Source: Leucoraja ocellata (lineage: Eukaryota). From it: a stretch of DNA of 64,000 nt. The stretch is taken from NCBI GenBank assembly GCA_036785375.1, contig JAWMAR010000531.1, positions 806,001-870,000 of the forward strand. Direction: 5' to 3'. Shown one piece after another: positions 1 to 27,525 of this stretch. Each line of letters starts with the position of its first letter. The stretch's first letter is position 1. Both the position numbers and the translations under genes were made by a program. The notes under the pieces were generated by a model. The model saw nothing but the letters and a program-made list of their open reading frames with translations. It was not told the DNA's origin and searched no databases.

Positions 1-2517
1 TGTGATACTGCAATTTCCCCCATGCAGCACATAAGTGGTTACTGTTTTTCTTTATGCCACCTCCGTGGTAATTGGAGTTCTGTTCAGTCCATTCTGAATA
101 TAACTTTTATGTGGATGTTGCTGCAGAAGTCAACATTTCTTGCCTTATAATTAATTGCCTATGGAAAATGGAGAGTTGCTGCAGTTGTTGTGTAATAGAC
201 CCTCGTTTGTAGCCACTCCGACATATTCCAGTATTTAGACTTGGTGACCATGAAAAGCATTTATGTTTCCCTCTGACTCAAAGGGGACCTTGCAAATGCT
301 ACCCTCTTGTACCTCTGACCATAGTGCCCCTGGGTAGAACTTGTGGATTAGGTAGGTACCTTCAGAACTTTTTAGACAAATAGAGCATGGAAACAAGCCC
401 TTCGGTCACCATATCTGCTCATCACTATGCCAATCTAAACAAATCCATCACTGTGGCCTGCCTGTCCATATGTCTGTCTATATGTTCCTTAAATATTACA
501 AATTTGCCTGCTTCCGTCACCTTGATCCAGGCCACCACCAACTCTTTAATTTTAAAGCACGTCTCAAACCAAAATGTCACCTGTACATTTCCTCCACAGA
601 TACTGCCTAGCTTGCTGAGTTCTTCTGGCTCTTTATGTTTTACTCAAGTTGCGTCACACATATTTTAATCTTCCCCTCGCTCACCTTGAACCTATGCCCT
701 CTAGTATTTGACGTTTGCACCCTGCTTTTATCTCTAGCTTTCAAGATTTTGGACACTTCGATCGGGTCACTCCTCCATCTCTAAACCTCCAGCTCTCGTA
801 TATCATACAAATTGCAGCTACAGTGTGCTACTGCTGCAGAGAATGAATGTAATGTTAATCCAACCGGCTCCTTTGTCCTTTGCCCTGCACTCTATATTTC
901 TTTAGTGTTTGAGCTACATGAATCTGGGCACTTGTCAAATAGTTCTTTATTTTTGGTATCATCACGGGGGGGGGGGAGGGGGGAGTGGTGGAAAGGCTCA
1001 CTGCATTATAGTTGGCATGTGACCTTTACTTGCTCTTCAGGTTACCAGGTTCAATTGTGAATTGCCAAGTTTCTCATTAATTATATGACCTCTGTTTTGT
1101 TGTTGGTGAATCTAGTTATGGCAACGCTTTTGAATGTAAAGTTGGTGATTAGACGCCTGCATTTTAGTGTCCTGAGCCCATGATATTTATGGGCATGTTT
1201 GAACAGTGCTGATCGTCATTTGTCAGATGAGCTCTACTGTTTGACACCATTCTGCTTCATTATTTGAAGATGTTCACCACTGAATATAACACTCCTTGAT
1301 CTTGTTTCCACTTTAACCATGGCCCATTGTTCATCATGACTATGACTAGATTGATGGGGTAGGAGAGTTGAATTTTTATGCAAGGTGACACCTGAACTAG
1401 ACGACTGAAATATTAGCCTACCTATGCAATCCGTTTGCATTACTCGTTATCACCTTCCCCACATCCAACAATGGACCATTGTGGGCTCCACCTTTCCTGG
1501 TCTCTGCAGACTTTGATCTGTTTTTTTGCACCATTGTACCTTGTCATATCGCTCGGTTCCCTCGCCTCTGTCTCTCAGTCTGAAGAAAGGTCTCAACCAG
1601 AAACGTCACCTATTTATTTTCTCCAGTGATACTGACTGACCTGCTGAGTTACTCCAGCTTTTTGTGTCTATCTTCGGTCTAAACCAGCATCTGCTGTTCC
1701 GTCTTACAAAAACAATCGATGAATTCTTTAGCGCAGCTGACTTAAATGACTATCTTGTAATGCCTTGAAACATTGGTGCAGAGACATAGTTCACATCCCA
1801 TATTAGTAGCCGATGAATTAAAATAATTAAAAGTATCTGGAATATTTTAAAGCTAGTGCCACCACTGTCTGCCAACCTTGTTTTAGAGTGTGACACGAGA
1901 CCTGCCAATGTGTTTGACAGTTGCTTCTTCAATTCAGTGATAGTTGGATCTGCCAGTGATGTTCATATCCTGTGAATTACATATTATTTTTAAAAAAAAT
2001 CAGAAGTGAGAACAGTAAGAGCATTCTTAAGTTATGAATGATGGGCAGTGTTTTCATTTGAGCCTGTGTAATGAAGTAGAATCTTATGAAGGTGCATTTT
2101 TATTATTTTCAACTTCTGCAATTTGCAAAAACACTTAGTGCTTTTTAAAAATTAAGCGTAACAGATTGCAGTTGGATGTTCGAATGGATGTGATATGTTG
2201 CTGTAGCTTTTGAGTTTCTTTTCCTGATTCCTTTCAAATGCTGACATTGTAATCTCTGGAAATGTTCACCCCACCCCCGGTTTAATGTCACCTCTCTATT
2301 TGTCTATACCTTAAATTGTCATATTAATATCTTGTTCAGTGTCGAGCATTATCCCGTGCGGTCCTGGGAAGCTTTCTCTTCAAACTGTAATCTAATTATA
2401 AGCTGTTGCCTAAATGCAAGTCGGCAGTTAATACTCTGAGATTGAAATAGCGGGAATTGTTCTGCAATTAAGGCAAAACTTAATTTAAGATGTAACACAT
2501 CTGTTTTTGTCCTTAAG

Positions 2518-2664
2518 GTAAAAGCTTTCTTGGCTGACCCATCAGCTTTTGTTGCTCCTGTTGTTGAGGCTGCTCCAGTTTCTGTCAAGGAGGAAGTGAA
2601 AGAGGCGGTGAAGGAAGAGTCTGAGGCATCTGATGACGACATGGGCTTTGGTCTGTTTGACTGA
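2518..2664 (+). CDS. RPLP0: 60S acidic ribosomal protein P0, last coding exon (upstream exons not seen in window)
   Basis: Acceptor ...tttttgtccttaag| then [48 protein letters not shown], matching the P0 C-terminus ([11 protein letters not shown]...DMGFGLFD); AATAAA at 2715-2720. Confidence 0.93.
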
Positions 2665-3642
2665 AAAAAAAGCAGCTACCCATTGTAGCACGGCTAATCA
2701 ATCAGCCTAACCAAAATAAAACATTTTATTTACGGAAACCTGTAGCTTGTGTGTTCATGTTTTAGTTTATTTATGTCTGTTTTTAACTTGTGGCTTTTAT
2801 GCAATTTTGTGTGAGATGGTTAGTAAGTAGCTGCTTAATCGCAGTATCTGTCACATGGTGTAAATGTCGATCAGTGACGGGCAGCGGTGATCACTGCTGA
2901 CAGTAAACTCAGGCTATTCAGCCTGAGTGCTCAGAACAGTATAACCAGTTTGCATTTGAAAGCTGGCATTACAATGCAGAATGCATTTAGTGTTCAATTT
3001 GGAAATAATATAAGGCAGCATCTGTGGAGGGAAATTGATAGGCATGTTTCAGGGCCAGACCTTCGAGTCTGGGGAACGGTCCTGACCTGAAAAATCTTTC
3101 CATTTCCCTCCATAAATGCTGCCTGGCCTGCCAAATTTCTCCAGCACTGTTTTTTGCTCAAGATTCTAACATCTGCAGACTCTTGTGAGTAGGTAAATAT
3201 TAACATGGAATTTGGCTAGGGTGTGATATAACTTCTAGATAAAGGTAAACAATGCCGAAAATATACTTCATATGAATTATGTTCTATCAGAATTGAAGTG
3301 CATCAATGTAAAACAAATGGTAATGTGGGACACAGCCATAATTCGATGTTTATCTGAAATATTGACTGAGTTAATTCTTTATCCAGGGTAATGGAGGGAG
3401 GTTGTACTAACCAGGGTAATGAAAACGCACTAGAGAACACGTTCAATGGCATCAGGCTTATTGTCTGATATTAATAATATATTGACTAAACAGAGTGGTT
3501 CTGTGCCTAATTAAATGCTCTTTAGCTGTAAGTCACCACTCTTCCCGAGGCCCGACTGGAGAATGAGGTTAGAAAACCCGTTCAAGCTACAGCCAAGAAA
3601 GCAAGCCAACATCTACTTCCTCAAAAAACAAGAGGTTTGGCA

Positions 3643-4005
3643 TATTCTTAAGGGGTTGGACAGGCTAGATGCAGGAGGATTGTTCCTGATGTTGGGGAAG
3701 TCCTGAACAAGGGGTCACAGTTTAAGTATAAGGGGGAAATCTTTTAGGACCGAGATGAGGAAAACATTTTTCACAGAGAGGTGAATCTCTGGAATTCTCT
3801 GCCACAGAAGGTAGTTGAGGCCAGTTCATTGGCTATATTTAAGAGGGAGTTAGATGTGGCCCTTGTGGCTAAAGTGATCAGGGGGTATGGAGAGAAGGCA
3901 GGTACAGGATACCGAGTTGGATGATCAGCCATGATCATATTGAATGGCGGTGCTGGCTCGAAGGGCCGAATGGCCTACTCCTGCACCTATTTTCTATGTT
4001 TCTAT
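3643..4005 (+). mobile_element. CR1 LINE 3' fragment inserted in an older Rex1/L2-like fragment
   Basis: ILKGLDRLDAG...TRGHS motif region and (tttctatg)n tail. Confidence 0.85.
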
Positions 4006-6004
4006 ATCTCCAAATACTTTCCAGCTTCTACGGATGCTCAGTCGAAAGCATACTATCAGGATGCATCACAACTTGGTTTGGCAAAAGTCCTGCCCAGATC
4101 TGCAAGAAATTGCAGAGTTGTGAATATGTTTCCTGGTTTCTCTCAGATTGCATCTTTATCATGAATGTCCAGTCCTCTTGCACCTCAAATAAAGGTCACA
4201 AGGCTGTCCGGTTCTGAAACCGAGACCCAATCAATTTCCTTCTGTTAACTCACTGTTCTGCCTGGTGGAAGTTGTCCTCAACAACCACTTTGATTCCTCT
4301 CACTTTCTCCAAGTTAAAGGTGCAGCCATGCAAACTGGCATGGGCCCCAGCTATACCTGACTTTTTGTTGGTCATGTGGAACAGACGGAGGAATTGGGAG
4401 CAGGACAGTCTTTGCAAGAGGCAGGGTGGGAAGGACATACCATGATAACCACCTCATCGAACTGTTGCTGCCTTGAGTAGACTAAGATGCCTTTGGACCC
4501 TACTGTCATTATGTATAAACATTATCATTGTACCCAAAATGCAGAACTCTGCAATTTTCAGAATTAACATCTATCATTACACGGCCCACCTTACCATATC
4601 AATGTTCTGTAAATGAAGACTATTCACGCGATCAACAACAGTTTCATGATTTGTGTCAACTGTGCACTTACTGATCATATCCTACTTTTACATTCAAATT
4701 AGTAATGTATATAATTAACATCAAGGGCCTGAGCACCAATTACTTCACACATACTGGTCACAGGCTCCAATGCAAAAAGCAATCCTTGACCATTACCTTC
4801 CATACCCTATCAGCAACCTTATTTTGCATCCCATTTACCAATAAATTGAGGAATGGGACTGCTGCAAATGATCAGAGTTCAAGCATTGGTACTCAAAGCA
4901 CGTGCTGAACCAAATTTGTTAAATTCTCACCTTTCAAACATACACCAGTTCCTAACAATGAGCCTAAAGTTATTCTGCTTCTATATTGCATGAATAATAA
5001 TGAGATTTATTCCTTGCATTGATCTCAAATCTCTTTCAATCATTCCCCTACCGTTACCCCACGCGTGCTCGTTCGCCATTTTGCCCACTTCTATTTCCTA
5101 TTTTTTTCAGTCTTTAACTAAGTGTAGGAAGGTGGGAATCTGACCAGACAGTCAACAGAACTATCGAATTGGGAAAATAATAAAATCAAGGGTGTAGAAA
5201 GGAACTGCAGATGCTGGTATATATTAAAGATGAGAGGGTCTCGACCTGAAACTCACCAATCCTTTTTCTCCAGAGATGCTGCCTGACTTGCCGAATTACA
5301 CCAGCACTTTGTGTCTATCTTCATTAATAAAGTCAATACTGAGAGAATTGGTATCCGATGGTTTGAGAAAAGAGCTGGAAGTGGAAACTTTATAATTGCG
5401 GAATTAAATGGGATTGGAAGCATTTCTCTGGGTTGATTACAAAAATGTACTATAGCGTGAGAAAAACATCTATCTATATAAGTGATGGTTGATGACCATC
5501 AATTATGTTTGCAAAATTCACACATTTTAGCTATGGTGTAACCCACAGGTTGTCAGACAGTATTGTATTCTGTGGAGAATATTTGCAGTCCGAGGATGGT
5601 GTAAAACAATTTAGCGATTATGACCTTTATCTGGTTTTGCTATTGCAAAGACCCCTTTGATGTAACACCTACGCGAGATAAAAACAAACCAGCTGCGTGA
5701 ACTATTGCAAAATCTCACCAAACTTGTTAAATTCACACCTTTGAAACATACACACCAGTTGCTTAACAATGAGCCAAAAGCTATTCTGCTTCTATATTTA
5801 ATTTTAATTTAATTTTATTTAATTATTTATTACGAACAGAATAAAAGAATAAAAAGCAAGTGTGAAACAGCATACAAAAAACAAAAGAATATTTATAAAG
5901 TGTCATAAACAATATCTATAAATAAATGAAATTGTATGTGTCCGAAAAGGAGCAGGAAGAAGCCAAAGAGAGACTGGGGAGAATTGAGGGGTGGGAGGCT
6001 AGTC

Positions 6005-7090
6005 AGGTCAAGAGAGTTTATTGTCATGTGTCCCAGATAGGACAATGAAATTCATGCTTGCTGCCCCACAACTGAATATTGTAGGCATAAATACAGATCA
6101 GATCAGTGTGTCCATATAGCATAGAATACATATATACACACACATAAATAAACAGATAAAGTGCAATAGGCTGTTCAGAGTTTGTTTGAAGTTGTGTTTA
6201 ATAGTCTGATAGCTGTGGGAAGAAGCTGTTCCTGAACCTGGGTGTTGCAGATTTCAGGCTCCTGTACCTTCTACCTGTTGTGGCGGTAAGCGTAAGTGGG
6301 TCCAGGTTATTGTTGAGGTATGAGTTGATTTGCACCATGATCAGCCTCTCAAAGCACTTCATCACCACAGATGTTAGTGCCACTGGTCGACAGTCATTGA
6401 GGCATGTCACCTTGCTCTTCTTGGGCACCAGTATTATTGATGCCCTTTTAAAGCAGGTGGGAACCTTAGACCTCAGAAGTGAGGGGTTGAAAATGTCCAT
6501 AAAAACTCCAGCCAGTTGGTCTGCACAGGTTTATAAAACATGCCCGGGTATACCATCTGGTCCAGGCACTTTCCGAGGGTTCACTCCTCTGAAGGATCTT
6601 CTGACGTTGGCCTCTGTGACTGACCGAAATACAATCACGGCCAATGGGGGCTCAGGAAGGCACATCAGTGGTCTCCCTATCAAAGCTTGCGTAAAACGCA
6701 TTGAGCTCGTCAGGGAGTGATGCTTCGCTGACATTTGAGCTGCCTCCTGATTTCGCCTTGTAGGAGGTGATTGCATTCAAGCCCTGCCACAGTTGCCGAA
6801 CATCCATCTCATCCCCCAGCTTGGAGCAGAAGTTCCTTTTGGCCTTTTTGATGGCCTTACCAAGATTGTATCTGGACTTCTTGTAGACCTCGGTATCTCC
6901 TAACCTGAATGCCCGGGATCTGGTCTTCAGAAGAGTGCAGATCTCATGGTTCATCCAAGGCTTCTGGTTAGGAAACACTCGGAAAGATTTTGTTGGGATG
7001 CAGTCTTCCACACATTTCTTTATGAAGTCTGTAGCGACTGTGGCGTATTAATTCAGGTCCCTGAACATTTCCCAGTCTGTGAAGTTGTTC
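6005..7090 (-). mobile_element. Rex1/Babar-like LINE, fragmented
   Basis: ORF pieces [46 protein letters not shown]...RFRNSFFP; frameshifted. Confidence 0.85.
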
Positions 7091-7654
7091 CTTTGCCACA
7101 CCCCCCCCCCCCCCCCCCACTTCAGATCGCATGGAGTTGGACTCATCAGCAATGGGAAAACATAATAGAATCACAAAGCGGTCTGTATATGATGTGAAGT
7201 TTGCGATTTGTATATGATGTGAATGTTTTGATGAGTCAGAAGATAAGTTACTTCCCACAGCATACCCAGCCTATGGCCTACATAACAATCCAGAAGCAGC
7301 TACATGGTTTTCCTGAGAATAGCTTATTTTTCTTGTAAATGGTGACAGACAGGACATTTTATGATGGGGGCGAGGTGAGCTAAGCAATGATACAGGAAAT
7401 AAATTTGGAGGAGAGGTGATTAGAATCTCTGTTGATGGATTTGGTTACTGACTAGTACTGATATGACATGAACACTTGTCTGTGTAAACCTGAAAGCCGT
7501 TGAGTTCTTGCCACACATGGGAACATTATCTTATATTTTCTGACAAGCTGTGAATGAAACTGAACATTGCAGGGTAATCAGTAAACATATCCACAGCTGA
7601 CATTTTGGTGGAGAAGAGTAAGTTGAATCAGCTGAAAATAGTTGATGCTGACAA

Positions 7655-8420
7655 TAGACAATAGGTGCAGGAGTAGGCCATTCGGCCCTTCGAGCCAGCA
7701 CCGCCATTGAATGTGATCATGGCTGATCATCCACAATCAGTACCCCGTTTCTGCCTTCTCCCCATATCTCCAGGCTCTGCCATCTTTAAGAGCCCGATCA
7801 AGCTCTCTCTTGAAAGTATCCAGAGAACCGGCTCCACAGGCTAAGAATTCCACAGACTCACAAGTTTCTGTGTGAAAAAAGTGTTTCCTCATTTCCGTTC
7901 TAATTGCCTTACCCCTTATTCTCAAACTGTGGCCCCTGGTTCTGGATTCCCCCAACATCGGGAACATGTTTCCTGCCTCTAGTGTGTCCAAACCCTTAAT
8001 AATCATATATGTTTCAATGAGATCCCCTCTCAACCTTTTTGGTATTTAAATTTGGAATTTTAGAGTATACATGCCAAGCCGGTCCATTCTCTCAGCAGAT
8101 GACAGTCCCGCCACCTCGGGAATTAACCTTGTACATCTACGCGGCACTCCCTGAATAGCAAGAATGTCCTTCCTCAAATTAGGGGACCAAAACTGCACAC
8201 AATACTCCAGGTGTGGTCTCACTAGGGTCCTGTACAACTGCAGAAGGACCTCTTTGCTCCTATACTCAACTTCTCTTGTTATGAAGGCCAACATGCCATT
8301 TGCTTTCTTCACTGCCTGCTGTACCTGCATGCTTACTTTCATTGACTGATGAACAAGGACACCCAGATCCCGTTGTACTTCCCCTTTTCCCAACTTGACA
8401 CCACTTAGATAATAATCTGA
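7655..8420 (-). mobile_element. CR1 LINE 3' fragment (copy A only)
   Basis: LVRPHLEYCVQFWSP, RGDLIETY, TRGHSLRI. Confidence 0.9.
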
Positions 8421-10321
8421 GAGAACGTCCTTTACACTCTCCTTTGTGTGCAACGTGATAATGTCCAGTGGTCCCCTGGTTAACTTTTTTTGTTTTCCCT
8501 ACATTCTCATATCACCTCCCCCAACCGACCCCACCCCTCCCAGATTCCATATGCTCACTAGGGACCATTTAGAGTAGCCAAATTAATCCACAAATTTACA
8601 CGTTTTGGGGAATGTGGGAGGGAACCCGAACACCCGGAGGATACTCACACGATCCAAGATCAGGAGTGGAGCCAATTCCGCCGTGCATCAGGAAAACGAT
8701 TGATTTATTCAGCGTCAGAGACGAGAGGCGCTAATAACCGTGCAGCGAGAAACCATTCGTAGACTGTGTGGGCAGCTGTGTGGCCTGTAACGGAGGATGA
8801 TGCATCCAGACGCTGCTGTCTGTACCAAAGATCCTATCTGGTACAGACAGATCCTATCTATTTGGTACGCCAACACAGAGGCTGAATATGCATCATCACT
8901 TAAATCACTCCTTGAATGTTCCTTTCTGCAGGCGTGCCAGCGTGAGAGTGTGGTGTTAATGTGAAAGTAATCGGAGGGCATCAGCGTCTGAAAAGCTAGG
9001 AGTCGTGGAGACGCGAATAATGTTCAAACTGGCGGTGAACCTGCAGCAGTTTCACGGCGAAGGAGGTGTCGCGGCTCGTTGGGCTTCATCTGTCTCAGTA
9101 GGTGCCGGCGCATTTCTGTCTCGGGTTGTTGGTCCTTAAGGCTAAAACTGTAACGTTGGTGGATGTGTGGGTCAGTCATCAGGAGAGGATGGCAATGGCA
9201 CGCGTCCTTTCATTTTACCTTTTAAGGCGGGGAGTAGACCAAAGATCCCATAGGGGAGGATCCTATCGCAATAGGATCTTTGGAATAGACTGCATTTCCA
9301 GACCAGTCTTCAGAAGGACTCGCTATCCTCCTGCTGCATTAACGCAGCGGGTCAAGCAGCATCAAGGAGATAAAGGATGGGTGATATTTCGGGTCTGGAC
9401 CCCCCCCCCCCCCCCCCTACTCCTCATCCCCTCGGCTGCTCTTCCAGTGAAAACTAACTTGCATCTCTCTCTTCCCCAGTTCTGGCGAAGGATCGCAAGC
9501 CCGGAAGATTTTTCTTTCTACAGACTACGACCACCCCCCCCCCCCCCCCCCCCGCAGGAGATTATGTTTTTGTTTCAGATTTGCAGCATCTGCAGGTTTT
9601 GTTTTGTTTTTAATAAATTCTCTCTCAGTTGGGAGCGTAACTATAGCGTCAGCTCAGAGCTCACTATCCGAAGGGCAAGGTGATGTTTAATTTACACTAA
9701 TGTTGTTGCTCATTGATTCGGGCCAAGTTAACGTGAAGCCATGGGGTCAATCACAAGACAGCAATGCCTCCGTGTAGAAGCGCGGCCACAGTCGATACAA
9801 GTCTCTCTCTCAGGTGATCTTTAATCTCGGCACCTCAAGTTCCTCAGATGTTCAGTCATGTCGCTGAGAACTGGTCATGCAAAGCTCATCAGTGGTTTCC
9901 CGGACCAGTGTGAGCCACTTTACCGATTTAATTAAAAATAACAGAAAATACTGGACATGTTCAAGTCAATCACAATATTTGCAATGAGACACAAAACAGG
10001 AACGCTGAAACTTTTGATCTTTTATCAGAACTGAAAGGCAGATTTAAAGGAATTACAGATCAAAATAACGGCGACGGGAAACAGCGAAGGTTTGGCAGAG
10101 GATGTCCTGAACATGACGGCGCACACAGCAAGGTAACTTACAGCGAGGTTCTATTTCTAAACCCGCAGGTTCCAACTAATCCGCTACTTCAGCTATTTCT
10201 AACTGCTGATTTCGGCATCCATACTATTTTGCTTCGGTGGTGAAAGTTTTGTCGGAGACGGCGACCAACAGTCACAGTGACTGCGATTTACAGTTACTGG
10301 ATGCAGGTTGTCACAACGAGC

Positions 10322-10432
10322 CTAGATTTTTCCTTTAAACTGCGGCTGAGAATAAACGACAGGTACTTGCTCTCCATCGCAACTCTGTGTTTGGGGGCTG
10401 GCTTTGCAAAATTTCAGAATTGAATATTGTGC
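10322..10432 (-). CDS. Receptor A terminal coding exon
   Basis: tttcctatatttccag| AQYSILKFCKASPQTQSCDGEQVPVVYSQPQFKGKI*; YxxL and a further VVY motif. Confidence 0.8.
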   Translation of the reverse strand, partial: AQYSILKFCKASPQTQSCDGEQVPVVYSQPQFKGKI

Positions 10433-13400
10433 CTGGAAATATAGGAAATATAGATAGCAGATTAATTGTCCTTAGAATGTTTACAATTATGATGTTAGTA
10501 ATTACTCTACACATTGCAGTAAATCCACTTGACTTTAACCTGTAATGTCGCGGTAAGCAGGTTTTCAAACAATGTTAACTTTATGTCAATGTTAGCTTTA
10601 AAATAGGTCTGCCCTTTTCTCATTAATCATAGATTATATTTCACAACGCCATATTTCAGTTCATCGAGAAGATGGGGGCTCACCGAGTAAACCCATCCCA
10701 CCGCTAATTTCTCAGTGGCATTTTCTTCCCGCATTCCAATCAACGTCCCCCCCTCCCAGATTCTACCACTCACCTGCAAACTGGGGGTAATCTACAGCGG
10801 CACTGGAATCCTTGGGATCTGTGTGGGAGCACCTGGGGGAATCCCTTTGCCTTCTTGGGGAGAATGGGGAAAAGTCCTCACATGCAGCGTGGACAGCAGT
10901 GTTGCTCAGGAGTTAGACACAAAAAGCTGGAGTAACTCAGCGGGACAGACAGCATCTCTGGAGAGAAGGAATGGGTGACGTTTCGCGTCGAGACCCTTCT
11001 GCAGTTGCACCGGAGTTGCTGGAGCCGCGAGGCAGCAACTCTCTTGGAGCCATTGGGGTTGGACTAGGACTTCCCTTGGGACAATTATCTTTAATTGTTT
11101 GTTTTCCAGTACAGCCCGTGTCGTTGGATGTCTGCCCGAATACATTGTCATGTAGTTTGAAATACACTTTTTTGTTTTGTTTTTACAGCATACCTGCTCT
11201 GTTGAATTATTGATGGTCTTTACCGTCGCAAAATCGGAATAAACGACCTGTGAATCTGCAATCTGACGGATTTCCGCGTATGTTGTAGAAGACGTATTCG
11301 TATATACACCAGGTCCTGAAATATCCTTTGGGAAACAAGAGAGTTAACTTCACGAAACTCAATAACTACATAGAAACATGGAAACATAGAAAATAGGTGC
11401 AGGAGTAGGTCATTCGGCCCTTCGAGCCTGCACCGCCATTCAATATGATCATGGCTGATCATCCAACTCAGTATCCTGTACCTGCCTTCTCTCCATACAA
11501 GGGCCACAAGGGCCACATCTAACTCCCTCTTAAATATAGCCAATGAACTGCCTTCTGTGGCAGAGAATTCCAGAGATTCACCACTCTCTGTGTGAAAAAT
11601 GTATTTCTCATCTCGGTCCTAAAAGATTTCCCCCTTATCCTCAAACTGTTCTGGAGGACCAAGATAAATGTTGAATCATATAACCGTATAACAATTACAG
11701 CACGGAAACAGGCCATCTCGGCCCTACAAGTCCGTGCCGAACAAATGTTTTTTTCCCTTAGTCCCACCTGCCTGCACTCATACCATAACCCTCCATTCCC
11801 TTCTCATCCATATGCCTATCCAATTTATTTTTAAATGATACCAATGAACCTGCCTCCACCACTTCCACTGGAAGCTCATTCCACACCGCTACCACTCTCT
11901 GAATAAAGAAGTTCCCCTTCATATTACCCCTAAACTTCTGTCCCTTAATTCTGAAGTCATGTCCTCTTGTTTCAATCTTCCCTATTCTCAAAGGGAAAAG
12001 CTTGTCCACATCAACTCTGTCTATCCCTCTCATCATTTTAAAGACCTCTATCAGGTCCCCCCTTAACCTTCTGCGCTCCAGAGAATAAAGACCTAACTTA
12101 TTCAACCTATCTCTGTAACTTAGTTGTTGAAACCCAGGCAACATTCTAGTAAATCTCCTCTGTACTCTCTCTATTTTGTTGACATCCTTCCTATAATTGG
12201 GCGATCAAAATTGTACACCATACTCCAGATTTGGTCTCACCAATGCCTTGTACAATTTTAACATTACATCCCAGCTTCTCTACTCCATGCTCTGATTTAT
12301 AAAGGCTAGCATACCAAAAGCTTTCTTTACCACCCTATCTATATGAGATTCCACCTTCAAGGAACTATGCACGGTTATAGGAACTATGGACGGTTATAGG
12401 AACTATGCACGGTTATATCAAGATAAATTGTCCACAATCTATGAGAGAAAAGTTAGAATTCGTACCTTCACAGTTTGCTTTGTTTAAATATAATATCATG
12501 TTATCAAATGGAACAATTATTTTCATTCCGCATGTAAATTTCTGCCATTTTATCGCTGCTTTCCCCTAAATACCTTAATTACCAGAATATCAATTACTCT
12601 TTTCTCTTTGCACAAACCAAGGTCGAATAGATTCTAACACCTCCTTGTATCCTCAACATTTATTTTTTCCAATACTAATGTCGCTAATATGGCTTGCCCA
12701 GTCTAGTTGCTTGTCTGATTTTTCAATGGCCTTTTCTCCAATCAGATGTGATCGCTGACCATGGAACTTCGCAAGGCGCAGCGATAAGCAGTGGATGCTT
12801 TGAATTTGACTTGAACATGACACTACTTTCAATCGAAGTGTCATGTTCCTAAAAATTATGGAGAACAACTAAAACAGTGGGGGAAAAAACAACGATTAAA
12901 CACCTTTTGGAAAGTACATGTCATTTGTTTGCACTAATAACATATGGTGCGTAAAGGGACGTAAATTGTGCAGTTACACTACCTCCAGTACTGTTCCAGG
13001 AGTCGAATCACTGTGCACCATTAACCGTTTTCCTATAATTACAAAATAACCAAGCATTATTTCAAGTGACATGTTGTCATTGTGTCAAGGCTGTAAATAT
13101 AATCACAATGAACTACAGGTGCTGTTTTACACAAACTGCTGGACTAATTCAGCGGGACAAGCAGCATCTCTGGAGAACACTATGAACATAGAATTATCCA
13201 AGGTAATTACCCTTTCAAGATTCAAGATTCAATAGATTTACTAGAATGTTGCCTGGGTTTCAGCAACTAAGTTTCAGAGAAAGGTTGAACAAGTTAGGTC
13301 TTTATTCTTTGAAGTGCAGAAGGTTAAGGGGGGACTTGATAGAGGTTTTTAAAATGATGAGAGGGATAGACAGAGTTGACGTGGAAAAGCTTTTCCCACT

Positions 13401-16400
13401 GAGAGTAGGGAAGATTCAAACAAGGGGACATGACATGAGAATTAAGGGACTGAAGTTTAGGGGTAACATGAGGGGGAACTTCTTTACTCAGAGAGTGGTA
13501 GCTGTGTGGAATGAGCTTCCAGTGAAGGTGGTGGAGGCAGGTTCGTTTTTATAATTTAAAAATAAATTGGATAGTTATATGGATGGGAAGGGAATGGAGG
13601 GTTATGGTCTGAGCGCAGGTATATGGGACTAGGGGAGATTATGTGTTCGGCACGGACTAGAAGGGTCGAGATGGCCTGTTTCCGTGCTGTAATTGTTATA
13701 TGGTTATATGGTTATTATATGGTTAATAGAGTTTATTGTCATGTGTCCCAGATAGGACAATGAAATTCTTGCTTTGCTTCAGCACAACAGAATATAGAAG
13801 GCATGAATAGAGAACAGATCAGTGTGTCCATATACCATTGTATAAATATATACATACATGAATAAATAAAACAGATAAAGTGCAAATAAACAGATAATTT
13901 GCTATTAATGTTCAGAGTTTTGTTTGAGTTGAGTTCAATAGCCTGTTGGCTGTGGGTAGGAGCTGTTTCTGAATCTGGACGTTGCAGTCTTCAGACTCCT
14001 GTACCTTCTACCTGACGGTAGCGGGGAGATGAGTGTGTGGCCAGGATGACGTGGGTCCTTGATGATGCTGCCAGCCTTTTTGAGGCAGCGACTGCGATAG
14101 ATCCCCTCGATGGTAGGGAGGTCAGAGCCGCCTCCCCCTTCTCTTCCCACACCTCTACTGTACCCCACCTGGTCCCACATCTATTTTTCTCCTCCCCCTT
14201 CCCCTCCCCCTCCTTGTACATTATTTCCTCTGTCTCCACAATTCGCAACTCTTCAATCTGTTCTACTCACACTTTCTATTCTAATCCCCGGCCTTTGTTC
14301 CTACCAGGTATCAAGCCGTGCCTCCACTGATTACCTGCAATGCTTTGTCCCGTCTCCCCTCTCTTCCTGCTTCCCCCTCTCCTACAGTCAGTCTGAAGAA
14401 GGGTCCCAACCCGAAACGTCACCTATCCATGTTCTTCAGAGATGCTGCTTTGATCCACTGAGTTACTCCATCACGTTGTGTCCTTTTAGCACAAACATCT
14501 GATTATTTTATATAGATTGCAAATATTGCACAGGAGGGGACGACTTGATTATTGGAGTGAAGACACTAAGTCCTGCGATATGAACACATAAAGGAATTAT
14601 TATAACAGTTTGTTTTAGGATTAGTAAAATGTGGAACTGAGAGTAAACTGAGATTTTCTGAGAACTTATTTTTGTTTTTGTTACTTTGAAATCTTTGCAA
14701 CAGGAATGCCCCTGTCCCACTTAGAAAACCTGAACGGAAACCTCTGGAGAATTTGTGCCCCACCCAAGGTTTCCGTGCGGTTCCCGGAGGTTTTTGTCAG
14801 TCTCCCTATTTGCTTCCACTACCTGCAACCTCCGGCAACCACCTGCAAACTCCGGGAACCGCACGGAAACCTTGGGTGGAGCGCAAAGTGTCCAGAGGTT
14901 TCCGTTCAGGTTTCCTAAGTGGAACAGGGGCATGATACACACTTTCACGCATTTTAGTTGCCATATTTGAGCACATTGTTCTACACATACGATGGGCCAA
15001 ATTGGGTACTCATTGCTGTACACTTCTATGATTCATTTCCCTGTTTGAAATTGATCGCCAACACTGTCAATTTTACCTTAATAATTTGTTGATGAATATT
15101 ATATATTCAGAGTATATTCGTTATTTACAGCGGAAAATTGACGCAAGCCTCTTAAGTTGGCGGTGAAAGCTTGATACTCACGTTTTACCTTCCAACAGCT
15201 TACCGCTATGAAAATAATGACAAATATCAGGAGGCAAATCAGCGGATAAAGCCACGAATGTAGTTCTTTCCGGTAAACAGGAAGTTCTTTCCGGTAAACT
15301 TTGAAAGAAGTGTACAAATATCAGGGTTAATATTTATAGGAAACTATAATTGGCACGTTTTACTGAAAAGTAAAGGAGTAATATGTGCACTCCCGGAGAG
15401 TTACTCACACTACACCTGCATCGTTTTGAGATCCTTTACAATATTATATATGTAATCAAACTTAAAATGCCGAGGTTTAGTATTTTCTCGTTATATTCGA
15501 CCGTTTCGCTTCTCGGCGGAAGTGCTTTCCATTTAAATTCCACAAGTTGATATATTTTTTAAAGACAGCGGAAAGATGAGTTTCTTGATGTAGAAAATTG
15601 ATCAACTGATATCGCAAAACACGTTTGGCCGTCAGTGTGTATAACGGGGAGTTCCCGCCGATGTAAAATTGGCTGCCGAAGGCTCGGAGTCTTCACGTGG
15701 AACTAGAAGTTGACAATATTTTACAATGCACCAGTTATGGAATTCAGGTAAATTGTGAATCAAAACGTGTAGAATTTAGCCAAAGTTGCTTCCTGACCTG
15801 CTGAGCATTTCCAACATATTTCAGATTTTCTGCATCTGCAATATTTTGTACAAAATTATCATAGGGCAAGATCACCCGATTTGTGTAATTACTAATGCCC
15901 CTGTCCCACCTAGGAACCCTGAACGGAACGGTTCCCGGAGGTTTTTGTCAGTCTCTCTACCTGCTTCCACTACCTGCAACCTCCGGCAACCACCTGCAAC
16001 CTCCGGGAACCGCACGGAAACCTTGCGTGGGGCACAAAGTCTCCAGAGGTTTCCGTTCAGGATTCCTAAGTGGGACAGGGGCATAACGTTTGCGGTTGCA
16101 TTACGTTTCTTGAATAAACTGCAGTGACTTTTTGAAAATCAAAAATTCAACTGCAACAAACCGAGTAAAATCAAAATGGTTCAACTATACTGTGTTTTTT
16201 TTAAATTTTTATAGAGAATTGAAGATTCTCATTCTCGATAACAAATGATCTCGGGTCGGGAACCATGTCAATCCAAGTTACAGATATATAGATGTGGTCT
16301 GATCTGCAATCACCAACATCGTTAACTTTCTTTAAAACAGGACAATACAGGACCTGAACAGCCCCCTCGGCCTACATCGTATGTGCCGAACATGACACCG

Positions 16401-17621
16401 ACCCTTATTTGCTTGCACACAATCCATATCCCTCCTTTCCATGCTTATCCAAGTGCCTTTCCGCACAATTTCCGTCGTTCCAGGCACTCCCCGCCCTCTG
16501 TAACTTTTCTTTTACCGCTCACATCAACTTTAAACTTTCCCCTCTCAAAGCACAAACAGAGCAGCTTTAATACTTCTAAATTCTCACACTGATCAAAAAC
16601 ATGATGCCAAACTCTAATTCAATATAACTGTCATAGAAACGTTGCTCACCCGTTTGTATATCTACCGATCAGGTAACAATATTTAGGTTACAAAATGATG
16701 CGTTTAACTATACTCGGGTGTACAATTACACAAATGCCAACTATCAAATGAAGTCGACGTGAAGCAGAATATTTTGAGATTATCTACATTGATCTTCTAA
16801 ACCAGTTGCAAGACGAACATTTCCACATGTTGTATCCATTTTTTCTTTCTATCTCCTTCGAAGTCTATATTTCTTTTTGTGGGGACATCTATTTTGCAAA
16901 TGCTGCTTAGTGTTTAATGTTCACCAGTACATTTCACCCTCGAGGACAATCCCACCAACATCTTCCCACACTCGGGTACTCACAACGCCCAAGAGAGTTA
17001 ATTTCACGAAATTCAGTAACTAGGTAATTAGGGAGCAACAATCCCGCTGGCACTCAACCCCCCCCCACCCCCCACTAAATCGCGAGCCGCTGCTGTTGCC
17101 CAGTGGCATCCCTGTCCAGGTTGTTTTGCTAGGATCAGGAACTGAAGGCAGCTGTTCAATTGATTTAATTTGAATTTAATTATGAATAATCGCATAATCC
17201 TACCTGTTACCATCAATAGGCTTCCGTTGCCGTTGAAGCCCCGAGTGGAGGGCGGATTCAACGTAATCAATTCACAGTAATATGTGCCGCTGTCTTCTTG
17301 CTGAAGATTTTTTATCGATAATTGGCTTCTGTATAAATGTTGGTCCCTAGTAAATTCTAGCTCGAAGGAACGGAGTACTTTGGATTTGTTCATGTAAATT
17401 ACGTAGGTCTCATTACTTGCATTGCTTGATTCACGAAACCAATTGATTACCAAGTCGTGGATTTTATCAATTGAAACGACACAGTTCAGCTTCGCTGTTC
17501 CTCCTTCAGACACTGTGAGTTTACTAGGAGTCTGGTAAACCAGCATTTCGTCATTAACAATCAGTGACCAGGCAGTGCAGAAAGTCCACATATAAAAATA
17601 TATAAATGTATCGATTTTCAT
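10322..17621 (-). CDS. Single V-J-type Ig-domain type I receptor, copy A (CD28/CTLA4/PD-1/NKp30-like architecture, long tyrosine-motif tail); 5 coding exons, 275 aa
   Basis: Exons 17621-17204, 15298-15182, 13032-12983, 11325-11194 and 10432-10322 all have GT-AG borders and compatible phases (1,1,0,0); 828 nt, open to TAG. Small extra exons cannot be excluded. Confidence 0.8.
11194..11325 (-). CDS. Receptor A cytoplasmic exon 2 (YxN, ITSM, ITIM-like)
   Basis: cttgtttcccaaag| DISGPGVYTNTSSTTYAEIRQIADSQVVYSDFATVKTINNSTEQ |gtatgc; 132 nt, phase 0-0. Confidence 0.82.
11681..12416 (-). mobile_element. CR1 LINE 3' fragment, copy A-specific insertion
   Basis: LYSLERRRLRGDLIEVFK ORF; the empty site in copy B reads tgttgaatcaagataaattg (~37938-37957). 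Confidence 0.88.
12983..13032 (-). CDS. Receptor A cytoplasmic exon 1
   Basis: ttttgtaattatag| (R)KRLMVHSDSTPGTVLE |gtagtg; 50 nt converts phase 1 to phase 0 as required and supplies the basic stop-transfer cluster; same length in copy B. Confidence 0.7.
13237..13724 (+). mobile_element. CR1 LINE 3' fragment, copy A-specific, TSD aataga
   Basis: RGDLIEVFK ORF, (ggttatat)n tail, aataga on both sides; absent at ~38750 in copy B. Confidence 0.88.
14707..14932. mobile_element. Harbinger/PIF-like MITE (copy B: 40147-40359)
   Basis: TIRs tgcccctgtcccactta / taagtggaacaggggca; internally palindromic. Confidence 0.8.
15182..15298 (-). CDS. Receptor A exon: stalk + transmembrane
   Basis: ttctttcaaag| VYRKELPVYRKELHSWLYPLICLLIFVIIFIAVSCWKVK |gtgagt; 117 nt, phase 1-1; uncharged hydrophobic helix. 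Confidence 0.85.
15896..16083. mobile_element. Harbinger/PIF-like MITE with TAA TSD (copy B: 41327-41514)
   Basis: taa-tgcccctgtcccac...gtgggacaggggca-taa. Confidence 0.85.
17204..17621 (-). CDS. Receptor A exon: leader + V-set Ig domain
   Basis: MKIDTFIYFYMWTFCTAWS...VYQTP...LNC...WFR...LSIKNLQQEDSGTYYC...FNGNGSLLMVT; canonical Cys, Trp, DxGxYYC and a J-like GxG strand; phase-1 donor ACAG|gtagga. Confidence 0.9.
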
Positions 17622-17699
17622 GTTTACGAGACGCTACTGCGGGCAGACAGGTTTGCATTAGCAGTGGTTTGCCAGAGCTACCGGAGTTTGAAGACTGAA

Positions 17700-17797
17700 G
17701 TCTGAAGAAGGGTTTCGGCCCGAAACGTTGCCTATTTCCTTCGCTCCATAGTTGCTGCTACACCCGCTGAGTTTCTCCAGCATTTTTGTGTACCTAC
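17700..17797 (+). repeat. Dispersed short repeat matching the Penelope 3' region (related copies ~1578, 10915, 14390, 28170, 43160)
   Basis: gtctgaagaagggtttcggcccgaaacg...gctgagtttctccagca recurs and is part of the Penelope insertion. Confidence 0.75.
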
Positions 17798-18804
17798 CAT
17801 AGTTTTTTGCAGACACAAGGAACTGAAGATGCTAGTTTACAAAAAAAACGTCACAGAGTGTTGGAGTAACTCAGTGGGTCAGGCAACATCTCTGGAGGAC
17901 AAGAGTTTGAAGCGACCGGTTACTGTTCCCCTTTCACAGTTCGGCCGGATGTGGGGTGTGCAGAACTCGACGCTCTGCAGAGCCATGCCGCTGTGGGTTC
18001 TGAAAATAGCTGTCGCCCAATAGAAGCAGAAACGCAGAACCAAGTGTTATCGGAACGCCTCGCCTCTGCGCCGAAAACCAACACCTTAACTCGAGCATTG
18101 CTGCGCTTGGCATTTAAGGTGTGATTTTCTTCAAACCAGCCTACGCTGAAAATAAGAGGAGACAATCTAATAAGTTAAACGTGTAAAATGAATTCAGCGA
18201 AACAAAGGCTATCAGTGATCAGCGAACAAACCTTAATTTGATCAAATCCAATTCAGTCGTAGTGTCGGAGGAAACTGCAGATGCTGGTTTAAACAGAAGA
18301 TAGACAGAAACTGCTGGAGTAACTCAGCGGGGCAGAGATGCTGCCTGTCCCACTGAGTTACTCCAGCATTTTGTGTCTCTCTGAAGTAGTGTCCTTCTGA
18401 TCCCGGTGTTCCAGGAAGAAACAGTCCCTGCATCTGGAGGTATGCGTTTTCACACGTCTGTACGTCTTGCCTGATGAGAGAGACGGGAAGAGGGGTTGTC
18501 CGGGGTGAGACTGGTCTTTGGGGTTGGTTGGGGACATGCCGAACCTCCTAAAGCCTTCTAAGGAAGTTGAAGCGCTGGCGTGCTTTCGTGGCCATAGCTG
18601 CTATGTGACTGGTCCGGCACACATTGCTGGTGATATTTATTCCTATGAACTTGAAACTTGGAACCATCTCTACTTCGGCGGTGCGTGTGCGTGTGCGTGT
18701 GCGTGTGCGTGTGATCTCCTTCCTGTATTCCGTCTGGTAATTATTTGATATCCGGTCCACAAATGCCTCCGCAATTGTAAATTGAGTTGGATTGGTGTTT
18801 GGCT

Positions 18805-18880
18805 GTGCAGTGTAGTGCAGTGTAGTGTAGTGTAGGGCAGTGCAGTGTAGTGTAGTGTAGCGGGGGGGGGGGGGGGGGGC
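18805..18880. repeat. (GTGTA/GTGCA)n pentamer microsatellite + poly-G
   Basis: Visible directly; much longer in copy B (44275-45012). Confidence 0.95.
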
Positions 18881-19376
18881 TGAGAACTCATCCTTATGGG
18901 GCATCAGTGTTGAGGATTATGGTAGTGGATGATTGGTCACCTATCCTCACAGATTGTGGTCTGCTGGTTAGGAAGACTAAGACCCGTTTGAAGTGGGGAG
19001 TGCTGATTCCGTTCCATTAGTTTGGAGATGAGCTTGCTTCGGCTAATGGTATTGAAAGTAGGGCTCTAGTATATGATGTAGGTGCTCGTCTCATCCAGAT
19101 GTTCTAAGGACAAGTGTAGGGCCAGAGAGATGGCATCAGCAGTGGACCTGTTGTGGAATTAGACGAACTGCTGTAGATCAAGGCTGCTTGATAGGCTTAA
19201 TCTGGCTGCTCTAAAAGCAATTCGTAATGGTGGATGTCAAGACATGTGGACAGTAGTCATTAAGCATGAGGTTTCGATTTTCTTTGGCATCGAGGTGATA
19301 GTGGTCTTCCTGATGCATGTCGGTACCTCAGAATTAATTCCCGGTCTACATCTAGACCAGTCCTATTTACTATAAA

Positions 19377-20417
19377 TAGGTATGTTACAAAACCTACCTG
19401 AATCGTGGCTGAGCATCTGCCCTACCCCGTGTCCGCGATTTTGGCGCTGTTTAGAGGGGGCGGGTTTAAAACGCGATTTTTACTAGGCTGTTCCAATCGA
19501 AAATGTTCAGCCTAGTAAATCATTAACGGAAAATCGCTGAAAGACCCCGTCGCAAAAGGTATTATTAGTTTTTATGGCCTTGTATAATATTTATAGTAGT
19601 TTAAAAATCACTCTCTTACTCCGCAACCTCTCGCAGCCCCAGGGTTTTATAAAGCAAACAATTAAAGGTATGTACCTTATTTTTACATTAAATGGGGCTT
19701 GTAGAATAACCCTGTGTATAAAGTTTTCTATAGCGAGTAGTTCATTTTGGGCTCTTTATATCCCGCAGTATTTTTCTGGGCATTTGAGGGCACAAATCCA
19801 GCGCAGTGTGAACGTTCTAAACCAGCGCGTTCACAGGAACCCACTAGAAAGCCGATTTAAATTGACTTTAATTTACAGCAAATGAACACTAAATTCCTTC
19901 CATTTGGCCTATAAATTGATGTCAATGAGATTTAAAAATCATGTTTTATTGTGAATTATTTGTGAATATTATTTGGACACTTGGGCTATTTAAAAATGTT
20001 AATCATTTATTAAGAAATGGATAGATGTTTAGAGCTAGTAATTGAAGTTTGAAATTAGCTACAATTGGGTAACTAACTAATTATATGCTTTAATTTCAGG
20101 TCATCCAAGTAAGATTATTTTATATTTGTTTCAGAATGCTTCAATCTATGATAACTGAAAATTTCATTCAGTTCTCTTCATTTTTAAGAAGGTTATGGGC
20201 TTTTGACTGTCCACGATCACAGCTTTTTTGTTATGTCCATAGAAAATCAATAGGGAACAAGATGCTAATTTCCGAGTATGAAAATGGCCATAACTTTTTT
20301 TATTAATTGAGATATGAAAGTGAATTAGGTGTCAAATTAAACTTATTGTTATGCTTTATCTGATGGGATAAATTGCAGACTTGATTTTTTAAATCTCAAA
20401 ATTTTGTAACATTGCTA
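19377..20417. mobile_element. Non-autonomous DNA transposon (copy B: 45511-46549)
   Basis: Imperfect TIRs taggtatgttacaaaa / ttttgtaacattgcta, flanked on both sides by ctataaa; no long ORF. Confidence 0.7.
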
Positions 20418-21399
20418 CTATAAAGAGAAAGATCTATGATGTTTTGAAGATCTACATTGATATCCTACACCCAGTTGCAAGTCGAACATATCCATGCTTT
20501 GTCCCCATTTCCCTACCCCCCGCGAGGCTTCCTTTGCGTTTGATGGGCGACGGGTATTTTGGGAATACTGGTCAGAGTTTAGTGTTTCATCAACGGGGTA
20601 TTCCTCAACCTCCATACGAGCTTGGATATTTGGCCCAGCAAGCTCCTGCCGTCACATCTCCGCGGCGCCACGTGGTTTATTTACGTACACACAGAAATGA
20701 CAAGGGACATTAATCTTGCTGATAATCCCTCCCCCACAAACCCCTATTCGCCAACGACATCTCTTCCCAGAGAATTCCAGAGATTTGGGATTTGCCAGGT
20801 GAAGACTGACGCCAATAATAAAAATAGTTAAGTCCAGGGATGCTTTTAGGTCAAGAATTTGAGTCCTTCTGCACATTCCAGTTGATATATTCTTTGTGTC
20901 TGATCAGTTATTTATTATAATTTTTCCTCCTATTGAGGTAGGCAGTCTGATGAAATGAGTAATGGGGATTTCAATGAAATTAGGCGAGAATCGAATTATA
21001 GAACTATATATTTTAAAGTTGGTTCAAATTTCACCAGTTGTTATATCCATCATATACTGCATTTACAACTCATAAGTCTGTGTAACAACCTGGGAGCTCT
21101 CGTGCAAATTCTCATTTGTTCTGCAATTTGGTTGACATCAGGAAGAAAACCCAGAGGGAAATATCCCTCATCCCCGGTTAAATGTAATTTCACATAAGAA
21201 ATGGTAGTACAAGTCTTCCATAATATTACGTAAATAAATGATTGGAAGGATTATGAAATTGCATTTATTTGAATGCAGATCATTCATAAATAACAATATA
21301 ATTGGGAACAATTCCAATGCTTATATGATCACAAGTGGATGGATTGCAGTTCACAACCGCTGGTTCTTGATTCTGCTACTCTGGGTAAAAGAGTAGGTT

Positions 21400-24335: not shown

Positions 24336-25519
24336 AAAGAGTAGGTTTAAGGTGGGAGATGAATGATTTAATAGGAACCCGAGGCGCAGCATTTTCGCAC
24401 AGAGATTGGTATGTGGAACGAGCTGCCACAAGAGGTAGTTCAAACAGGTACTATAACAATATTTAATACACATTTGGACACGTGCATTAATAGGAAAGGT
24501 TTAGAGGGATACGGGCTTCGTATCTTCGAGTAACCTTTCATCCTGCATGATGTGGCGCTGCATTCGACGATGTTCTGTGGTCCCTGCAGTTATCTTGCTC
24601 TTAGATGCTGAACCAATCCAAAATAGTGACATAATCTGCAGCACCTTTGGGATATTTACAGTTCTTGTCATTTATGGGGAGGCAAATGCAAACTGCTTGA
24701 TGAGTAAATGCTGGTATTGCCCAAATGTTCGTCTCTGTGCCGTGCAGTCTTGCAACAGTAGGTGGCAGCATTGCATCGGTTATGAAATAATGTTCATTGA
24801 TTGCGGAGATGGGACAAATGGTCAATTATCATTGTCTAGTCAAGTCAAGTCACATTTATTGATATAGAACATTTAAAAAACAACTCTCGTTGGCCAAAGT
24901 GCATTACATTTGTTATAAGAATAGCACAACAAAACAAAACAAAACAAAACAAACTACATACATACATGTAGCAATATTACGATAATGTGTAAGCCCATAA
25001 ACCCATCTAATGCCTAGTCATTTGGCGATTATGGGTGTGGATGCGAATATACTAATTGAGGAGCGGCTTTAACCTTTGACACATGACAGTAAAAAAGACG
25101 GAGGCAATAAAGTTACTGAATGCTCAATTGCACTTGGAGAAACAAACACAAAATATGTTTCCTCTTATGTCCAATTTATAGTGACATAGTCTTAAAAAAA
25201 GAGTTTGGATAAAATAACATACAAGCAGCTCGCACTGAGTAAAGGCGGTAATAGAAATCGACCTTTTGATATCTTTGCTTTTGACCGCGTGGGCAGAAGA
25301 TACTGATGCAGTCTCCGATTATAACGGTAGGTGGCGCTGCCGTACCTTACATCTGTGATGAAGCTCAACGCGGCCAATTCTGAAATAGGTCAAACGCAAT
25401 ATTGTGTCTGAGGTCACGTACAGGCCAGACCAGCAATAATTGGATTATTTTCCCCTTGAAGGATATATTTGGGATCCAGTTGTATTGTAATAATCAATCA
25501 TACACCATGAACATGAAAA

Positions 25520-26218
25520 CTTTAGGAGCGCACATCATCCGAGGACGTACACTCCATTGAGGATGAATGGGGATCCTGTGGATAGGGTGAACTGTTTTAA
25601 ATATCTGGGAGTCCACATCTCCGAGGATATGACATGGGCATCACACGCCTCAGCATTCGCGAGTAAGGCAAGGCAGCGCCTTTACCACCTCAGGCAATTG
25701 AGGAAATTCAGAGTGTCTCCGAGGATCCTACAGTGCTTCTACGCAGCGGCGGTTGAAAGAAACGTGTCCGGGAACATTACCATCTGGTTTGGGAATTGCT
25801 CTGCCAAGGACAAGAAGGCTCTGCACTTCACTTGCCCCCCTGCAGGAACTATACATCAGGAGGTGCAACTCCAGAGCCAACAATATCATGAGAGACCCCT
25901 TCCACCCCTGCAACGGACTGTTCCAGCTGCTACGGTCAGGCAAACGCCTCCGTTGCCATGCGGTGAGAACGGAGAGGTTGAGAAGGAGTTTCTTCCCAGA
26001 GGCCATTCGGACTGTAAACGCATATCTCACCAGGGACTAACTCTACTGAACATTTTTCCTTCCATTATTTATTATGCAAAATAATATGTGTGTTATGATA
26101 GTGTTTATAGTTTGTTTGGTTGTTTGTCTTTTGCACAAAAGTCCGCAAGCATTGCCACTTTCATTTCGCTGCACATCTCGTATGTGTATGTGACAAATAA
26201 ACTTGACTTGACTTGACG
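25520..26218 (+). mobile_element. Rex1/Babar-like LINE 3' fragment (copy B: ~51640-52408)
   Basis: FKYLGVHISEDMTW...KARQRLYHLRQLRKF; (cttga)n tail. Confidence 0.85.
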
Positions 26219-27187: not shown

Positions 27188-27334
27188 GTAAAAGCTTTCT
27201 TGGCTGACCCATCAGCTTTTGTTGCTCCTGTTGTTGAGGCTTCTCCAGTTGCTGTCAAGGAGGAAGTGAAAGAGGCGGTGAAGGAAGAGTCTGAGGCATC
27301 TGACGATGACATGGGCTTTGGTCTGTTTGACTGA
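27188..27334 (+). pseudogene. RPLP0: Orphan duplicate of the RPLP0 last exon
   Basis: [48 protein letters not shown]; acceptor and AATAAA intact; only ~290 nt of the upstream intron was co-duplicated. Confidence 0.85.
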
Positions 27335-27525
27335 AAAAAAAGCAGCTACCCATTGTAGCACGGCTAATCAATCAGCCTAACCAAAATAAACCATTTTATT
27401 TACGGAAACCTGTAGCTTGTGTGTTCATGTTTTAGTTTATTCATGTCTGTTTTTAACTTGTGGCTTTTATGCAATTTGAGTCTATTTTGTGTGAGATGGT
27501 TAGTAAGTAGCTGCTTAATCACAGT

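Follow-up and report, generated by a model that had tools for sequence, protein, structure and literature searches.

A conserved, unnamed single-IgV receptor gene of sharks and rays, likely of the CD28 family and likely inhibitory, in the skate Leucoraja ocellata

The stretch of 64,000 nucleotides analysed here (the window) raises the question of whether three short minus-strand exons between positions 10322 and 13032 form the tyrosine-bearing tail of a receptor and, if so, to which family this receptor belongs and whether its signalling motifs are those of the family or of the skate. The exons are in frame as the preliminary description had joined them, with AG acceptors at all three and GT donors at the first two, and they extend the frames at 17621-17204 and 15298-15182 to a protein of 275 amino acids. 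The resulting minus-strand gene has five exons in one open frame of 828 nt (275 aa and the stop), with an AG acceptor and a GT donor predicted at all four introns:

17204..17621, minus strand: exon 1, with the start codon, the predicted signal peptide and the entire V-J type IgV domain
15182..15298, minus strand: exon 2, with a short stalk followed by the transmembrane helix
12983..13032, minus strand: exon 3, 50 bp, the first tail exon, without tyrosine
11194..11325, minus strand: exon 4, 132 bp, with Y203, Y211 and Y224 (VVYSD)
10322..10432, minus strand: exon 5, 111 bp including the stop, with Y242 (ITIM-like) and Y266 (VVYSQ)

Exon 1 matches the Pfam V-set family (E 4.9e-16), and its structure model has a V-set fold (pLDDT 85). 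In most CD28-family genes the leader and the V domain lie on separate exons; here they appear to share one, since the sequence from the ATG to the beginning of the V domain has no phase-1 acceptor. The best 19-residue window of the exon 2 helix (residues 156-174) contains zero charged residues, and the exon holds competing donors at 15203 and 15188, one of them consensus-like, which would break the frame if used. The membrane exon opens with a short direct repeat (15298-15270 of the window), which makes the stalk about five residues longer than in the ray orthologs. Exon 1 is identical to two ray orthologs at 79/139 and 80/139 residues; the identity to the sawfish ortholog is 19/39 in exon 2, 11/17 in exon 3, 21/44 in exon 4 and 17/36 in exon 5, and exons 3-5 are therefore more than a chance reading. 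Breaks in the ortholog models coincide with these exon edges, with P0012 cleanly lacking exon 4, P0158 lacking the membrane exon, and P0005 and P0159 ending just past exon 3. One contig of the putative-RNA set X9 spans 10144-10435, carries 49 unplaced letters and ends at the expected exon-4 splice point. The exon 4 sequence had 0 records in the putative-RNA sets X9, X2 and X8 and in about 5% of the raw run X23, and no spliced read across the receptor junctions was found among four putative-RNA contig sets compared with 9800-17900, a comparison swamped by repeats. At the level of sequence, exons 3-5 are confirmed as the predicted cytoplasmic tail of a five-exon receptor gene.

Relatives of the receptor were found in a stingray, a sawfish, two catsharks, the horn, white, bamboo, zebra, sevengill and basking sharks, and a chimaera, all annotated as uncharacterized or hypothetical except the chimaera protein ('PD-1-like'). 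A profile search returned 11 cartilaginous-fish proteins at E<=1.2e-75, the next match lying at 8e-13, and by sequence comparison nine full-length shark and ray proteins are orthologs of the skate receptor. No paper was found for the accessions looked up, and the further accession and locus terms sought in the supplements of PMC11599192 gave no match. Tail conservation was counted over these nine proteins, one per species, leaving out the isoform duplicates P0004 and P0007, the models P0005 and P0159 (ending after exon 3), P0012 (skipping exon 4), P0158 (skipping the membrane exon) and the chimaera protein, whose tail is not comparable; P0160 was retained, though 19 residues around Y224 are missing from it.

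Four tail tyrosines are kept at 0.78-1.0 in these orthologs (Y203 in 9/9, Y224 in 7/9, Y242 in 8/9 and Y266 in 9/9), against a mean of 0.35 for the remaining 92 columns of the tail, where 7/9 is reached in 14. No complete set of tyrosines is invariant, since the horn shark is without Y242 and the bamboo shark without Y224. The surroundings of Y203 follow (T/S/I)(I/T)YAT(L/V), being an ITSM in three proteins, an ITIM in five and TIYATL in one, and a hydrophobic +3 residue follows Y203 in 9/9, Y242 in 8/9 and Y266 in 9/9 orthologs. Strict ITIMs occur at Y242 in 3/9 and at Y266 in 1/9, and in the skate at neither; the white shark has a YxN, placed at Y224.

The skate tail carries the peptides that had been reported for it, namely VYTN (11307-11296), TTYAEI (11286-11269), VVYSDF (11247-11230), AQYSIL (10432-10415) and VVYSQP (10360-10343), all on the minus strand. 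None of its five tyrosines fits the canonical ITIM, in agreement with the earlier wording of VVYSDF, AQYSIL and VVYSQP as ITIM-like and non-canonical. The hydrophobic +3 residue is lost in the skate at Y203 and Y266, and one site has been added:

11269..11286, minus strand: TTYAEI (Y211), fitting TxYxx(V/I), its tyrosine present in 0/9 orthologs and in 4/4 copies of this assembly

The spacing of Y203 and Y224 in the skate equals that in two rays and the flanks align gap-free, so Y211 is a new tyrosine and not a shifted Y203; in sequence terms, the skate has eroded the Y203 motif, and an ITSM has arisen eight residues further along. When the 99-aa skate tail was shuffled (100,000 shuffles), an ITSM arose in 7.8%, a YxN in 14.2% and both in 1.1%, and the skate ITSM and YxN matches would, taken alone, be weak evidence. 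Thus, of the conservation on which the preliminary description had made its reading depend, Y203, Y224, Y242 and Y266 hold, while Y211 and the YxN at Y203 are each found in 0/9 orthologs, and the BTLA-like combination of YxN and ITSM is not supported as a family trait. Its motif order with the ITSM first stands at the family level as an ITSM-like first site, but the position differs, this site being Y203 (TIYATV in 3/9, a canonical ITIM in 5/9) and not Y211. As far as the aligned tails tell, the skate motif order is a peculiarity of the skate and not the design of the receptor family.

The term checkpoint-like receptor, by contrast, is supported by the single IgV domain, the one membrane helix, the four conserved tail tyrosines and, as a lead only, the nearest look-alike clusters of the sawfish ortholog, which include PD-1-, BTLA- and CTLA4-like ones. 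We therefore consider it probable that the locus encodes an intact single-IgV, single-pass receptor conserved in sharks and rays, likely of the CD28/PD-1 family and likely an inhibitory co-receptor; its splicing, expression, ligand, phosphatase binding and inhibition are what we infer. Its V domain would meet a cell-surface ligand, expected from the family to be a B7-type protein; once a Src-family kinase had phosphorylated the tail, SHP-2/SHP-2L or SHP-1 would dock on two tail sites through their tandem SH2 domains, and the docked phosphatase would damp antigen-receptor signalling. The likely docking sites in the orthologs would be Y203 (YAT-L/V), Y242 and Y266, the sites with the hydrophobic +3 residue. 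The shark TIYATV fits the CD150-type TIYxx(V/I), and TTYAEI fits the preference of the SHP-2 C-SH2 domain, (T/V/I)-x-pY-(A/s/t/v)-x-(I/v/l), both as given or cited in the available text of PMC12151841. In the skate, this new site would take over after the +3 loss at Y203 and Y266, and such a compensation may be proposed from the motifs. Against an inhibitory reading stand the skate tail without a canonical ITIM and the unconserved ITSM and YxN.

As to the family, the best reading is likely an unnamed, likely inhibitory receptor of the CD28 family. The single extracellular IgV domain, one transmembrane helix and tyrosine-bearing tail of this family are present, as are the CDR3 prolines and the G-strand GxG: the skate YYC-x6-PPS-x5-GNG is in register with the YxCx6PPPx4/5GxG given as the CD28X and CTLA4 signature in the available text of PMC11599192. 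The same survey (Quiniou et al. 2024), in that text, lists nine family members and reports CD28HL3 as undetected in cartilaginous fish. V-domain trees on 118-128 columns with few true outgroups left the receptor family unplaced among the CD28-like groups, the forks between groups being unresolved. A tree that nested the bird PD-1-like rows inside the receptor family was rejected as long-branch attraction, these rows having left once the skate PD-1 was added. The receptor is not PD-1 itself: the genome carries another V exon, on C331/C438, that agrees in its CDR3 with the one published for shark PD-1, bears a glycan site ahead of DSG and clusters with the bird PD-1-like rows (93/94).

The receptor may be a tenth, so far unlisted CD28-family member that cartilaginous fish have retained and that has disappeared or become unrecognisable in bony vertebrates, perhaps as a sister of PD-1; in our estimate this reading has close to an even chance. 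A bird PD-1-like query ranks the receptor V exon first (E 4.5e-5), with the true PD-1 behind (4.5e-4); the receptor family and PD-1 make up one side of a branch with support 84, not starred; the chimaera relative was automatically named PD-1-like; the look-alike atlas ranks PD-1 clusters second and third for the sawfish ortholog, as a lead only; and the profile search gave no bony-fish match close to the receptor family. However, long branches make an attraction to PD-1 unreliable, and the PD-1 hallmarks are missing. The tyrosine after the C-strand W (Y68), K78 and the N116-x-S/T glycan site, in PD-1 numbering aligned by eye, are not found, the pair being W-F in the skate and W-L in most orthologs, and the Asn before DSG being absent; nor does the tail hold the PD-1 consensus (I/V)(D/E)Y(A/G)(E/V)L followed by (T/V)EYATI. 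This reading also leaves the location in the CD28HL3 block unexplained. In its most specific form, put forward tentatively, a tenth CD28-family checkpoint receptor would be sister to PD-1, have its ITSM-like site ahead of the others and lie at the edge of an Ig light-chain locus, with a single exon for the leader and the joined V-J; the skate lineage would have moved its main phosphatase-docking site by eight residues, through the loss of one motif and the gain of another.

The receptor may instead be the cartilaginous-fish ortholog of CD28HL3, a possibility of somewhat under even chance, compatible with the preferred explanation of a likely inhibitory co-receptor and fixing its name. This reading draws on the neighbourhood. 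The gene order on the contig of the window (C531) is a SIRT4-type sirtuin, a PP-loop gene, paxillin, RPLP0, the receptor, its duplicate and Ig light-chain clusters, with an MRP-L28-family gene near the contig end; the names SIRT4, CTU1, MRPL40 and lambda used for these neighbours are partly our presumption. The first light-chain cluster, presumably lambda/type II, lies in the window:

58609..61838 (start approximate), plus strand: leader, germline-joined V-J and C1 exon, with Pfam V-set and C1-set matches

Tandem light-chain clusters with germline-joined V-J start 15 kb from the second copy of the receptor and continue on C531 to at least 953 kb. The neighbours RPLP0, PXN and SIRT4 fall within the interval on human 12q24 that was published for CD28HL3: in humans they lie between PRKAB1 and PLA2G1B (PMC11867633), and the CD28HL3 synteny block is marked by prkab1b, pla2g1b and tmem233 (PMC11599192), each as far as the available text of the source goes. 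Chicken chr15 likewise has RPLP0/PXN/SIRT4 with PRKAB1, TMEM233, PLA2G1B and PATZ1, next to IGLL1, according to the accessible part of PMC7402339. However, searches for the named markers other than TMEM233 gave no match on either C531 or C384; PRKAB-, PLA2-, CCDC60- and CNH-family matches lie on other contigs of an assembly of 5,847 contigs. The 140 kb of C102 around its PLA2 cluster and CNH match held no V domain, and a search for the Gcn1_N domain gave no match.

The sequence comparisons with CD28HL3 point both ways. By eye, the last two tail sites resemble its YAAL ... VLYS pair, and Y242 and Y266 recall the pair [IV]xYxxL ... VTYxxV; however, CD28HL3 has two tail sites against four in the receptor family. 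In its CDR3 pattern, YxCxxxxx[IAVL]P, the skate YYC-ELITL-N-P has N at the [IAVL] place, where the rows seen of PMC11599192 vary too. With a single CD28HL3-like row available, the AU test does not reject the grouping with the receptor (p 0.135), and the rival grouping of this row with a gene on C276 has support 21. Pairwise V scores do not discriminate. The receptor gene is absent from the 10 genome matches (E<=0.001) of a paddlefish protein labelled by eye as CD28HL3-like, which finds instead the C276 gene at 1e-6, with a last exon (ICYAKL and TVYSPV) closer to the sterlet VCYASL. This unnamed single-IgV gene, at L006:1450-1980 and L088:9468-9608 (G000:C276), occurs twice on its contig, has a relative in P0087 and is a rival candidate for the cartilaginous-fish CD28HL3.

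Several other IgV genes were observed in the genome and its relatives. V exons of CD28H, CD28HL1 and CD28HL2 type, labelled by eye against the rows seen of PMC11599192, lie at other loci, the CD28H exon having the CDR3 of the little skate row there. The V exon at L063:1471-1875 (G000:C271), with CDR3 YHCEVLVEIPPP..G, matches the shark CD28HL2 rows, a gene reported as not found in rays in the available text of that survey. A further shark and ray single-IgV family (P0088, P0100, P0139, P0183), with a CD28-like CDR3 and YSEI-type tail sites, has no close match in this skate genome. Clusters of V-J type IgV exons, some with an EIPPP CDR3, lie on G000:C175 (1.08-1.20 Mb), C2394, C3523 and C471.

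Membership in another V-J type receptor family appears unlikely, and is kept in view because the trees leave the receptor unplaced and fold searches with its V domain return antibodies and TCRs first, PD-1 ranking only 49th by Foldseek; searches of the PDB by sequence and by fold yielded generic V-set matches only.

Whether the skate gene is instead decaying, its altered motifs being drift and not function, is in part a question of its copies. The window contains a tandem duplication and a second receptor copy:

2239..53105 (2239-26899 and 26909-53105), strand not assigned: tandem duplication of about 26 kb, self-BLAST blocks mostly 94-98% identical
36361..43082, minus strand: second receptor copy, exons at about 43082-42664, 40722-40609, 38555-38506, 37384-37261 and 36471-36361

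The duplicated unit holds the last RPLP0 exon (Pfam Ribosomal_60s at 2446-2661 and 27119-27334), the receptor gene and a LINE, and the duplication recurs on C384, which is probably the other haplotype with two receptor copies. Near-complete reverse-transcriptase frames, which we take to be those of a LINE, lie in both halves (21676-24277 and 47529-50149 of the window). Large in-line duplications of 97-99% identity were also seen on C531 (547-590 kb versus 671-711 kb), C132 and C276; they carry twin equal-score matches (sirtuin, CCDC60-type, IgV) and may be uncollapsed haplotypes. The second copy, about 26 kb from the first and absent from the preliminary description, has one extra G in the leader, a 3-bp loss in the membrane exon and an 8-bp frameshift deletion in exon 4, and a stop 23 codons after its first ATG, with a later in-frame ATG. 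On C384, copy one has a V frameshift and no membrane exon, whereas copy two is undamaged as far as residue 230 and has its stop 13 nt ahead of the last junction, and would therefore give a short-tailed receptor keeping the ITSM. The leader variants are swapped between the copies on C531 and C384, which may point to gene conversion or to a switch in phasing. Selection on the V exon, from nine replacement and one silent codon differences between two intact V exons, was set aside as resting on too few differences.

Thus, one of the four assembly copies, that at 10322-17621, is full-length; frameshifts or a lost exon in the other three and the loss of the +3 residue at two ancestral sites speak for decay, and the shortening of both C384 copies may reflect relaxed selection in this species. 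However, the copy at 10322-17621 keeps all five exons, the splice sites and the frame, two of the frameshifts come down to one base each within short runs and may be read errors, and the gained TTYAEI fits the SHP-2 preference, so that decay is rather improbable. Finally, a conserved BTLA-like dual-signal receptor, whose YxN would recruit Grb2 and whose ITSM would recruit SAP or SHP-2, is very doubtful: both motifs are present in all four copies of the assembly and rarely coincide in the shuffled tails (1.1%), but no ortholog has either at these places, and the only YxN seen, that of the white shark, is at Y224.

The receptor gene is accordingly real, conserved and unnamed, and it is of a known kind. 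If it is the CD28HL3 ortholog, a gap in the 2024 survey would be filled and CD28HL3 dated to the common ancestor of jawed vertebrates; otherwise the receptor would be the tenth member of the CD28 family. In both cases, a likely inhibitory checkpoint receptor would be added to those that the literature searched records for sharks and rays, and the skate copy would be a small case of signalling-motif turnover.

Among the known systems, PD-1 shares with the receptor the order of IgV domain, stalk, membrane helix and tyrosine tail, and the shark Y203 core YAT(V/L) recalls the PD-1 YATI (available text of PMC12151841 and PMC11599192); its V domain scores no closer to any other group than to PD-1. 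Unlike PD-1, the receptor is without the N116 glycan and Y68, has GxG and other neighbours, and places its ITSM-like site first, where PD-1 has it second. BTLA resembles it in the single Ig domain and multi-tyrosine tail, and is among the atlas look-alikes of the sawfish ortholog, as a lead only. The BTLA tail is laid out as YxN, then ITIM, then ITSM. In the receptor, however, the YxN is unconserved (0/9 at Y203) and the ITSM-like site precedes the ITIM-like ones; the tandem ITIM and ITSM of BTLA is described in the available text of PMC12151841. With CD28X and CTLA4 it shares the CDR3/G-strand spacing YxC-x6-PP-x-x5-GxG, but its third proline is S, its tail is without YEDM or YVKM, and the CD28X neighbours pudp, sts and anos1 were not seen at its locus. 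CD28HL3, in the available text of PMC11599192, is also a single IgV with a GxG G strand and an ITIM-like tail ending in (V/I)(V/L)YS, predicted to be inhibitory, and it belongs to the same human 12q24 interval; it differs in that the receptor has the CDR3 CELxxLxPPS, and its sequence does not single the receptor gene out.
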